DNA of 64,000 nucleotides, from contig JBMYRH010000009.1 in the NCBI GenBank assembly GCA_049602155.1, forward strand, positions 95,391 through 159,390, in the 5' to 3' direction. Origin of the DNA: Myxococcota bacterium (GTDB lineage Bacteria; Myxococcota_A; UBA9042; PHBI01; JBMYRH01). The notes under the pieces were generated by a model. That model saw only the letters and a list, made by a program, of their open reading frames with translations, was not told where the DNA came from and made no database searches. The translations under genes and the position numbers were made by a program. Of the stretch, positions 41,834 to 43,776 are shown one piece after another (positions within the stretch are counted from its first letter, which is position 1; every line of letters begins with the position of its first letter).

Positions 41834-43057
41834 ATGGTCAAGACAGAGCACAAACGGATCGTATTTGCCGGGCTTCTCGGCATGTTCTGCCTGGTGGGGC
41901 AACCCGCGCTGGCGGACATCGACGGGTTTGAGATCTTGGAGATCTCCCCGGTCGGCGATGTCAGCCTGAATAGCCGGCTGGGCACGACATCGAGCGCGAC
42001 AGAGCACCTCATCAACATCGCCGACTGCGAATCTTACGCAGACGGGACGGTCCAGATTGAGATCGGGGTCGACACGAGCAACTACGTCTCCTTTAGCTAC
42101 GGGGTGGCTGTCGCGTTGCCAGGTTCGACGTGCAACGCGGACTCCACCGACTTCGCTGGTAGCGATGACACGGTCTGTAAAGTGCTCGAGTCGGCGGGAG
42201 AGCTCGACACGAGCTTTAAAGTCACGGTGGACCTCGATCGACTCACCGGGGGTGATTGCACCTCAGGCACCGAGGCATCTTCAGTACTCTACGTGGTCGT
42301 CGCAGACTCGGACGCCGCGAACTCGGCCAAACAAGAGGTGCTCTTCAACGTGGATCTGCTTCGCCCCGCTGCGCCGACCATCACAGAGGTCATCGGCGGC
42401 GATGGTCGCCTTGAGGTGCTCTTCGACGACTCGGATAACGAGACCGAAGAGGGGTTGAGCTATGACATCTACTGGAGCACGACCTCTATCCCGGAGACCC
42501 CGGGCAGCGACGTGAGCAGCGGCTCGACCTCGTCGACGACCTACGAGATCGATGACGAGTCCATCGTCAATGGCTTGACCTACTACGTCCGCGTTGGCGC
42601 CACCGACAGCGCTGACAATGACAGCGCCCTCTCCGATGAGCTGAGCGTCGTGCCTGTCCCTACGACGGACTTCTGGGAAGCGTATAAAGCGGCCGGCGGG
42701 ACCGACCCCGGAGGCTTTTGCTTTATCGCGACCGCCGCCTACGGCTCACCGATGGGGGCAGATCTCGATCTCCTGCGGGCCTTTAGGGACCAGATCTTGT
42801 GGCCCACTGCGCTCGGTCGGAGCTTCGTCCGCAGCTACTACAGTTGGGGGCGTCATGCGGCCGCGTGGATCGCAGCGCGCCCTGTGGCCAAGGCCGTTGT
42901 CCGCGTCGCTCTACAGCCCTTGGTGTGGGTCGCAGCGCTGACCACCACGATCGGTGCGCTCGGGACACTGCTGCTCTTTGGCTTGGTGCTCAGCGCGGTG
43001 ATGCTCTTGTGGCGGCACCGTCGTGAGCGCGCGGTGCATGCTCTGGAGGTGAGCTAA
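41834..43057 (+). CDS. Secreted cell-surface protein with [10 protein letters not shown] motif and C-terminal TM/basic anchor (407 aa).
   Basis: AGGAGG 12 nt upstream. Signal peptide [27 protein letters not shown]. Ser/Thr/Asp-rich beta-type domains, [30 protein letters not shown], then the hydrophobic helix [26 protein letters not shown] followed by RHRRER. Confidence 0.7.
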   Translation: [407 protein letters not shown]

Positions 43058-43776
43058 TGAAGACCCTTCGCCTCTTAGCCCTCGCGGGTGCGATGTTGTT
43101 GGTCTTGTCGCCGTCGGCGTCAGCAGAGTCCTCACGCTCCATGATGCTCGAGCTTCATGCTGGGCCCTATACCCCGCAGATCGACCGCGCCTTTCTGTAT
43201 TCGACGCCCTACGCCGACTACTTCGCTGAGACACCGATGGTGATGCTCGGGATGCACTTGGATTACCAGGTGTGGCAGGGCTTCGGTAGCCTCGCTGTCG
43301 GGGCCGGCGCTCGCATCGGTTGGTCCGACGGGCTGGCGGTCAGCCAAGACGGGTCGACGTCGTCCGATACGACGAGCTTGAACGTCGTACCTTTGACGGC
43401 GACGGTGACCTATCGCTTTGACTGGCTCGCGCAGAACGTGGGGATCCCGCTGGTCCCCTACGCCAAGGTGGGGATGACCTACTCTGTGTGGTGGGTCACC
43501 AACGGCAGTGGCGAGATAGCCAACACCTACGACCTCGATGGTGTGGGGCGCGCCGGGTACGGAGGCACCTTTGGCTTCCATGCCGGCGGTGGTCTGCAGT
43601 TCCTGCTCGATTGGTTCGGAGCCGGTATGGCTGCCGAGTTTGACGCCGAGATTGGGGTCAACAACAGCTACATCTTCTTCGAGTACGCCTATCACAGCGT
43701 GAATGACTTCGGCTCGGAGACGAGCTTTGACTTGGGCGACGCTAACTTCAGCGCTGGCCTGATGTTTGAGTTCTAG
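43057..43776 (+). CDS. Small outer-membrane beta-barrel protein (239 aa), translationally coupled to the upstream gene.
   Basis: TAATG overlap with the upstream gene. Signal peptide MKTLRLLALAGAMLLVLSPSASA. Alternating amphipathic beta-strands and a C-terminal ...SAGLMFEF ending in Phe. Confidence 0.65.
   Translation: MKTLRLLALAGAMLLVLSPSASAESSRSMMLELHAGPYTPQIDRAFLYSTPYADYFAETPMVMLGMHLDYQVWQGFGSLAVGAGARIGWSDGLAVSQDGSTSSDTTSLNVVPLTATVTYRFDWLAQNVGIPLVPYAKVGMTYSVWWVTNGSGEIANTYDLDGVGRAGYGGTFGFHAGGGLQFLLDWFGAGMAAEFDAEIGVNNSYIFFEYAYHSVNDFGSETSFDLGDANFSAGLMFEF

Follow-up and report, generated by a model that had tools for sequence, protein, structure and literature searches.

In Myxococcus xanthus, the social-motility protein SgmI is composed of two fibronectin type III (FN3)-like domains and a sorting tag, and sgmI is co-transcribed with MXAN_2562, the gene for an outer-membrane barrel; transposon insertions in sgmI and MXAN_2562 have the same adhesion and development fitness profile, with defects in motility and adhesion (bioRxiv 10.64898/2026.08.28.747804). 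MYXO-CTERM tags undergo Cys-dependent cleavage by the CPBP protease myxosortase (MrtX) and direct surface display (PMC11980579). The MYXO-CTERM protein TraA of M. xanthus is paired with the envelope partner TraB, and their genes overlap by 4 bases and have identical mutant phenotypes (PMC3325183). Here, a gene pair was analysed in a 64 kb stretch of DNA from a Myxococcota bacterium (assembly GCA_049602155.1, contig JBMYRH010000009.1), hereafter called the window, in whose numbering all positions are given. Gene 1 encodes a predicted SgmI-like surface protein with a CFI-box-CTERM tail, and gene 2 encodes an outer-membrane beta-barrel of the MXAN_2562 family. On balance, we lean towards the view that the two genes form an operon that encodes an adhesin module of the cell surface, conserved across the Myxococcota and corresponding to sgmI (MXAN_2561)/MXAN_2562 of M. 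xanthus.

Gene 1 occupies positions 41834-43057 of the plus strand (open reading frame (ORF) of 407 aa) and gene 2 positions 43057-43776 of the same strand (ORF of 239 aa). The original prediction, made from the sequence of this stretch, had gene 2 starting in a TAATG overlap, and the ORF coordinates bear this out: the stop codon TAA of gene 1 (43055-43057) and the ATG of gene 2 (43057-43059) have one base in common. Shine-Dalgarno-like sequences precede both genes, AGGAGG at 41818-41823 for gene 1 and GGAGG at 43045-43049 for gene 2. The two genes are translationally coupled.

The gene 2 product was assigned to the MXAN_2562 family with the NCBIfam model NF040596 (206.3 bits against a cut-off of 100), aa 29-239 being aligned to profile positions 2-208 of 208. 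A signal peptide was located at aa 1-23, ending in SASA and followed by ESSRS as the mature start, and the C-terminus reads GLMFEF, i.e. the terminal residue is Phe. The AlphaFold model (predicted local distance difference test (pLDDT) score 83.9) is a beta-barrel of approximately eight long strands, and the mature length is approximately 216 aa. In a Foldseek comparison of this model with the PDB, the best matches were OmpX, the OmpA transmembrane (TM) domain, Ail, OmpW, NspA and PagL (E values of 2e-6 to 5e-4 for OmpX, OmpA, Ail and NspA). The predicted fold is thus of the 8-stranded OmpX/OmpA type, which suits an anchor, not a secretion pore. The protein resembles OmpX, the OmpA TM domain, Ail and NspA in its long strands reaching beyond the membrane and its aromatic terminal residue; identity to OmpX, OmpA, Ail and NspA is 8-19%, however, a profile search gave no sequence-level match in the PDB, and gene 2 differs from OmpX-type barrels in the extra short helices of its loops and in its obligate upstream partner gene. 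A small barrel ending in Phe as the cognate of gene 1 was therefore correctly anticipated. The resemblance to two-partner secretion that had been drawn at the same time fails, since the barrel is approximately 8-stranded, OmpX/OmpA-like and devoid of POTRA domains. Membership of the TpsA/TpsB family was also considered and rejected: such pairs combine an Omp85-type barrel of 16 strands and its POTRA domains with a cargo that has a TPS domain, the barrel here has approximately eight strands, and Pfam finds neither a POTRA nor a TPS domain in the pair. Pfam searches gave no match for either protein, and PDB sequence searches found no relative of the gene 1 tail or of the gene 2 barrel.

In gene 1 (all features on the plus strand), a signal peptide (aa 1-27; 41834-41914) has its hydrophobic peak at aa 9-27 and a cleavage-type site between ALA and D, and forms a helix at aa 6-19 in the AlphaFold model. 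The ectodomain (41915-42652) comprises a Cys-containing beta-sandwich (approximately aa 28-175) and an FN3 domain (approximately aa 178-273). It is followed by a pre-tag motif (aa 279-295; 42668-42718), which is common to CFI-tagged and MYXO-CTERM-tagged barrel partners and has the form FWGAYRAAGGTDQGGC in Archangium, and by the CFI-box core (aa 296-364; 42719-42925), which begins at the invariant Cys296. The single strong TM helix (aa 373-391; Kyte-Doolittle maximum of 2.37) is directly followed by WRHRRER, and this helix and the basic, predicted cytoplasmic tail span 42950-43054. In the AlphaFold model (pLDDT 81), the signal helix precedes two beta-sandwich domains, which are followed by a short helix at DFWEAYK, core helices at aa 297-303, 308-322, 326-348 and 350-373, and the TM helix. 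The earlier description of gene 1 thus holds: the protein has a signal peptide for export, and its C-terminal tail contains a Cys, followed by a TM helix and basic residues at the end.

The tail was identified as a CFI box by the NCBIfam model NF041770 (78.1 bits against a cut-off of 40), of which aa 296-364 cover the full profile (positions 1-69 of 69); the tail by itself scored 81.3 bits. The block that had looked conserved in the single sequence lies at aa 293-322. In an alignment of 30 homologues, C296, F297, A299, T300, A302, G304, L314, R315, F317, R318, D319, L322, Y335 and Y336 were invariant, and because these 14 residues do not vary across the 30 sequences, the block is not a chance motif; a lack of conservation in homologues had been named as a ground for giving up the proposal, and the motif was found to be conserved. 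MYXO-CTERM models gave no match on the gene 1 tail. Membership of the exosortase/PEP-CTERM system was rejected, as TIGR02595 remained under its cut-off (10.9 bits against 16) and no PEP motif was present. GenBank holds an identical gene 1 protein, from a Myxococcota metagenome-assembled genome, under the name 'CFI-box-CTERM domain-containing protein [Myxococcota bacterium]'. The suggestion of an uncharacterised system does not stand, as the motif (NF041770) and the barrel (NF040596) have already been curated by NCBIfam, the protein is in GenBank and the pair matches sgmI/MXAN_2562 of M. xanthus.

For the analysis of gene order, a profile was built from 20 barrel homologues, 291 relatives were found in one-genome-per-species contigs and the best 80 loci, nearly all from Myxococcota or Bradymonadales genomes, were retained. 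Loci were tallied by script and inspected manually; 78 of the 80 were evaluable and two were cut by a contig end. A fibronectin-type tagged protein was directly upstream of the barrel or fused to it in 77 of the 78, the exception being a barrel without a partner (locus L044). The partner carried a CFI box in 34 loci with a separate upstream gene and in 12 with an in-frame fusion to the barrel; a short tag of the MYXO-CTERM type was found on nine separate partners and 22 fused ones. Gaps between adhesin and barrel genes were tiny or negative. The pairing that the original prediction had proposed is therefore conserved, and the case named as counting against it, absence of the barrel gene from homologous loci, was not encountered. 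The order asd-like gene, adhesin, barrel, truA recurs among the 80 loci, with the asd-like gene upstream in 50 and truA downstream in 55; in the window, the asd-like to truA region spans 40520-44594.

In 34 of the 77 partnered loci, adhesin and barrel were a single in-frame polypeptide, in the order adhesin, tag, TM helix, Arg cluster, second hydrophobic stretch with an AxA-type site, and barrel beginning at a conserved ESP(R/Q). These fusions came from no fewer than four distinct clades, involved both kinds of tag and were present also in genomes of low GC content (38-45% GC; L033, L045, L055), and independent gene callers gave the same fused proteins (P0269, P0279, P0316, P0386). An origin of the fusions as an artefact of spurious long frames in high-GC DNA was rejected on these grounds. 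As read from the sequences, the topology of the fusions is self-consistent, the Arg cluster being cytoplasmic and doubling as the positively charged start of the barrel signal peptide. Read-through fusion after a CFI-type tail seems to be generally tolerated.

The tags on the barrel partners were of two kinds, the CFI box in 46 loci and MYXO-CTERM in 31. The short tags are genuine MYXO-CTERM tags; that of L021 passes TIGR03901, and the tail of the Archangium locus L074 matches the end of the SgmI profile. A DFWxxY...GG pre-tag motif precedes both, the Archangium sequence being FWGAYRAAGGTDQGG-C-SISWGLMP..., and because both tags follow this same motif, the CFI-box Cys and the MYXO-CTERM Cys coincide in position. 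When the barrels were placed on a neighbour-joining tree, several switches of tag type were seen. A parallel to Cys-type C-terminal sorting tags had been drawn beforehand, and it is upheld in that the CFI-box Cys occupies the position of the MYXO-CTERM Cys of orthologues. In both tails, a Gly-rich stretch leads up to an invariant Cys, a TM helix comes next and the cytoplasmic end is rich in Arg, and both are attached to many unrelated exported heads. The CFI box differs from MYXO-CTERM in that its Cys and TM helix are set apart by approximately 70 conserved residues of helical structure (FIATAAYGS...LRxFRD...YY...LxP), in that a few of its members lack the TM helix, and in being common outside the Myxococcota. 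We know of no processing enzyme for the CFI box.

CFI-box tails are abundant. An exhaustive representative search (E <= 0.001) returned approximately 14,700 clusters at 50% identity, nearly always with the tail C-terminal and with many different heads; a word-indexed homologue search with the tail only returned eight short fragments. The tail was also found outside the Myxococcota, in Desulfobulbaceae and Thermodesulfobacteriota. Among 139 representative members, 117 had a TM helix and a basic cluster after the core, as gene 1 does. TM-less proteins were seen at 8001-9827 of L085 (P0077) and as P0332, P0367 and P0389; they end in ...LxPLVWFSRLV and have no Arg cluster. Six CFI-box proteins beyond the close family were checked for a downstream barrel. 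None was present downstream of the unrelated proteins P0077, P0072 and P0109, and one was present downstream of P0091, P0076 and P0041. All three of the latter have an FN3 domain beside the tag, and two of them are in the asd-like/X/barrel/truA position but have beta-helix or beta-propeller heads. Because the barrel-linked P0091, P0076 and P0041 all have FN3 and barrel-less CFI-box proteins exist, the constant partner of the barrel, as judged from these sequences, is a membrane-proximal FN3 stalk with a Cys tag of either kind, not the CFI motif. The tie that had been proposed between the motif and the barrel was thus incorrect in its specifics, given the barrel-less P0077, P0072 and P0109, the 31 barrel partners with MYXO-CTERM and the approximately 14,700 clusters with varied heads. 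In L086 (8001-10410; CP070733.1, a 2.5 Mb genome labelled Pseudomonadota), the gene for a CFI-box protein that combines FN3 domains with a NosD-like beta-helix head overlaps a barrel gene by 8 nt; the barrel scored 106.6 against the MXAN_2562 family cut-off of 100, and the pair lies outside the asd/truA context, beside a BufA1/MbnB-type peptide cluster.

Upstream of gene 1, a palindrome, TGACAAAATGTCA (palindrome 1; 41594-41606, plus strand), is a candidate site for an enhancer-binding protein and the sole TGACA-N3-TGTCA in the window (0.03 expected). A palindrome-like second site, TGACAGGTTGGCA (41633-41645, plus strand), starts 39 bp after it, and these two are the only TGNCA-N3-TGNCA matches in the whole window. 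A sigma-54-type -24/-12 promoter, TGGCATggcgcTTGCA (41723-41738, plus strand; TGGCAT-ggcgc-TTGCA), is the sole TGGCAY-N5-TTGCW in the window on either strand (0.07 expected), and the palindromes lie 129 bp and 90 bp upstream of it. A generic 5-3-5 palindrome is common by chance, and the significance of palindrome 1 rests on its conservation across loci. Its sequence does not vary among the close relatives L081, L083 and L084; in relatives at 81-83% protein identity, the first approximately 90 nt after the asd-like stop codon are near-invariant and the remaining spacer is variable. Of 71 evaluable loci, 45 had TGNCA-N3-TGNCA at the equivalent position, a density of 0.80 per kb where the background is 0.035 per kb, the recurring form in distant loci being one or two copies of TG(A/C)CA-N3-TG(G/T)CA, 39-42 bp apart if paired; paired sites at this distance were present in six other loci. 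A relaxed sigma-54-type promoter was found at the same place as that of the window, also in 45 of the 71; its density was 0.70 per kb, compared with 0.017 per kb elsewhere, and it followed the palindrome at a distance of 66-180 bp. Palindrome and promoter occurred together in 38 of 71. In Archangium-type loci, the palindrome is kept and the promoter is a GG-N10-GC variant.

The window has a -24 GG, a -12 GC, the spacing between them and an enhancer site within approximately 70-200 bp upstream, and the layout looks like that of a sigma-54-type promoter with upstream activator sites recurring across the phylum. Palindrome 1 is most readily understood as one half of an upstream activator site to which an enhancer-binding protein would bind. 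It had been put forward as a possible operator; a real, conserved cis-element is indeed present, but it resembles a sigma-54 enhancer site, not a repressor operator. No basis was found for naming its regulator. A second small palindrome, GACCAGTGGTC (41607-41617), directly follows palindrome 1 and is invariant in L081, L083 and L084, and is not obviously conserved in distant loci. A sigma-70 promoter scan of 41300-44000 found none, and no RNA family was detected in the intergenic region with Rfam. A single terminator-like match (minus strand) was discarded, being merely the stem of GACCAGTGGTC.

The comparison with SgmI/MXAN_2562 is favoured by the co-transcribed small barrel of family NF040596 and by the shared pre-tag motif, and the upstream palindrome with its GG-N10-GC promoter is present in Archangium-type loci; the M. 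xanthus locus was not among the 80 loci retrieved. The tails differ, that of gene 1 being a CFI-box-CTERM of approximately 110 aa and that of SgmI a MYXO-CTERM of approximately 35 aa. When gene 1 was held against what characterizes the SgmI family, the downstream MXAN_2562-family barrel was found, the MYXO-CTERM tail was not and the family score fell short. The TraA/TraB pair is likewise a two-gene operon of overlapping genes, for a tagged surface receptor and an envelope partner that function jointly. TraB, however, is far larger and has an OmpA-like domain that binds peptidoglycan, TraA combines a PA14 head with Cys-rich repeats, and neither has any sequence relationship to gene 1 or gene 2.

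For the function of the pair, the following mechanism is proposed. The gene 1 product would be exported by Sec, and its C-terminal helix would hold it in the inner membrane while the Arg cluster stays on the cytoplasmic side. Its tail may be processed at or near Cys296 as in MYXO-CTERM proteins, the Cys being lipidated and an intramembrane protease cutting the chain, and the freed protein would move to the cell surface. The shared mRNA would yield as much barrel as adhesin, and BAM would insert the barrel; it is too narrow for a protein channel and would act as the outer-membrane partner or anchor of the adhesin, as TraB does for TraA. The CFI-box tail may be a Cys-dependent sorting device, because its Cys coincides with that of MYXO-CTERM, which is cleaved by MrtX and directs proteins to the surface. 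We infer lipidation and cleavage at Cys296 and transfer to the surface, and, by analogy with TraA/TraB, retention of the adhesin by the barrel. In its widest form the proposal is tentative, and we hold it with more doubt than confidence: the CFI-box-CTERM would be a Cys-dependent surface-sorting signal, exchangeable with MYXO-CTERM and served by a myxosortase-like protease; the MXAN_2562-type barrel would be the dedicated outer-membrane receptor of the lipidated FN3 stalk; and the module would be an ancient Myxococcota unit under the control of sigma-54 and an enhancer-binding protein, linked to pilus-dependent motility and to adhesion.

Several observations weigh against a correspondence to SgmI with sorting of this kind. 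The SgmI equivalog model (NF045522, MXAN_2561/SgmI family) gave gene 1 86.9 bits against a cut-off of 150; the match was limited to aa 148-301 (profile positions 139-285 of 304), and the N-terminal 140 residues of gene 1 lie outside the SgmI profile. With approximately 70 conserved residues between Cys and TM helix, the CFI box departs from the classic tripartite signal; in gene 1, approximately 76 residues separate Cys296 from the helix, and the Cys/TM/Arg layout of MYXO-CTERM is not found. Approximately eight of the 139 representative CFI-box proteins end right after the core and have no TM helix. Because some members lack this helix, the core may have a role of its own and be able to act without a membrane anchor, and these members speak against a sorting signal of a purely classical kind. 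An ordinary MYXO-CTERM protein is encoded in this genome as well, namely a subtilisin/S8-like protein of 1184 aa (33984-37538, minus strand) ending in ...EDDGGCGTSQSQGLPLWSVLFALMLGWAVRRRQATL, whose tail scored 20.7 bits with TIGR03382 against a cut-off of 15.85. As both tags thus coexist in the organism, the CFI box cannot simply be the form that MYXO-CTERM takes in this lineage; the presence of a MYXO-CTERM substrate in the window implies a myxosortase system in the organism. Genes for CPBP proteases, rhomboids or exosortases were absent from the 64 kb window, and the co-occurrence with sortase-like genes that had been suggested was seen neither there nor in the conserved neighbourhood. Literature searches on CFI-box, CFIATAA and sgmI returned no paper mentioning the motif and one relevant preprint, on sgmI, and none that shows a CFI-box protein to be processed, lipidated or surface-exposed. 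As evidence of physical partnership, the fusions count for less than they seem to: a TM helix and an Arg cluster with a signal peptide behind them make up a hairpin that is harmless in terms of topology, and CFI-box tails are also internal elsewhere: in P0333 the tail is followed by a phosphate-selective porin (Porin_O_P), in P0318 by a barrel-like C-terminal region (judged by eye, no family being matched), and in P0249 it is joined in tandem to a second complete CFI-box protein. The fusions prove tight operon linkage and tolerance, not contact.

The main rival explanation is that the CFI-box tail is a permanent, uncleaved anchor in the inner membrane, whose beta-sandwiches cross the periplasm and bind the barrel as a trans-envelope tether. 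The size of the conserved helical domain, at approximately 70 aa far larger than known sortase-type signals, is in keeping with such an anchor, as are the TM-less members of the family; helix 350-373 is amphipathic and moderately hydrophobic and would fit a membrane-surface element, an 8-stranded barrel is a plausible docking partner facing the periplasm, and the in-frame fusions are accommodated equally well. A plain anchor would, however, have no need of a Cys that is invariant in 30 of 30 homologues, the FN3, beta-helix and beta-propeller heads of the partners are typical of surface-exposed proteins, and orthologues carry at the same Cys a MYXO-CTERM, a tag that is cleaved and leads to surface display (PMC11980579). 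We therefore regard a permanent anchor as unlikely, although it deserves to be taken seriously. A dedicated translocator, by which the barrel would carry the gene 1 product across the outer membrane in a two-partner or autotransporter manner, is suggested by the cargo-then-barrel gene order with its translational coupling and by the superficially autotransporter-like architecture of the 34 loci in which cargo and barrel are one polypeptide. In those very fusions, though, the cargo is followed by a TM helix and by an Arg cluster in the cytoplasm, and the barrel comes only after an internal signal peptide, an order that is incompatible with autotransport; a mature barrel of this size and strand number belongs with OmpX, the OmpA TM domain, Ail, OmpW and NspA, which conduct no polypeptide, and POTRA domains, TPS domains and Pfam matches are all absent. 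Translocation by the barrel is thus extremely improbable.

It is also conceivable that the two genes share an operon and a regulator only, with no physical or functional partnership. Their neighbours (the asd-like gene and truA) are housekeeping genes, whose order could be an old frozen arrangement, and fusion of a tagged protein to the next secreted protein is topologically neutral and was seen with other partners. Adjacency of adhesin and barrel nevertheless persists without the asd/truA context (L074, L078, L079) and, with a different head domain, in L086; the partner was missing from just one of 78 barrels, and the M. xanthus insertions in both genes share a fitness profile. Co-regulation alone is for these reasons very unlikely, and a partnership of adhesin and barrel is preferred.

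The genes around the pair in the window are of housekeeping type and comprise a uridine kinase gene, a gene for a TPR protein, the asd paralogue, truA and a gene for an ArsA/Get3-type ATPase. The last of these (44627-45787, plus strand) lies just 3' of truA and is kept there in 14 loci; its best match was BagB (299 bits, below the cut-off). Get3-type ATPases handle tail-anchored proteins in other organisms. In Gammaproteobacteria, the gene for the pilus-assembly protein FimV, a LysM/TPR inner-membrane protein, is located between the asd paralogue usg and truA. In usg/fimV/truA and in asd-like/sgmI-like/barrel/truA, an envelope protein tied to type IV pilus function thus occupies the same slot, sgmI being a gene of social, pilus-dependent motility; FimV has no similarity to gene 1 or gene 2, and the parallel may be coincidence. 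Elsewhere in the window, a double-FHA protein with a Cys-rich, zinc-ribbon-like start adjoins a TPR/HEAT-repeat protein of 1347 aa (45784-50669, minus strand), both being kept in L081, and a parA/parB pair is present at 4315-6008 (plus strand), so that the window may be near the chromosomal origin region.

The finding is real, yet it is not a new system: the locus is a member of a curated, phylum-wide and mechanistically unstudied gene pair. The pair is ordinary as such, with both parts in curated families and a Myxococcus counterpart of known mutant phenotypes, and what is modestly new is the exchange of tags at a fixed cysteine, the recurrence of the fusions and the conserved sigma-54 layout. 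The exchange of tags at one Cys in an orthologous family amounts to a natural swap experiment and provides a testable hypothesis for the processing of a widespread, unstudied tail domain. The conserved sigma-54 promoter with its paired palindromes offers a way to search for the regulator of a gene of social motility and adhesion. Recurrent fusion and an adjacency that is almost universal suggest that MXAN_2562 is the partner of SgmI, which bears on how C-terminally tagged proteins are retained at the surface of Myxococcus.

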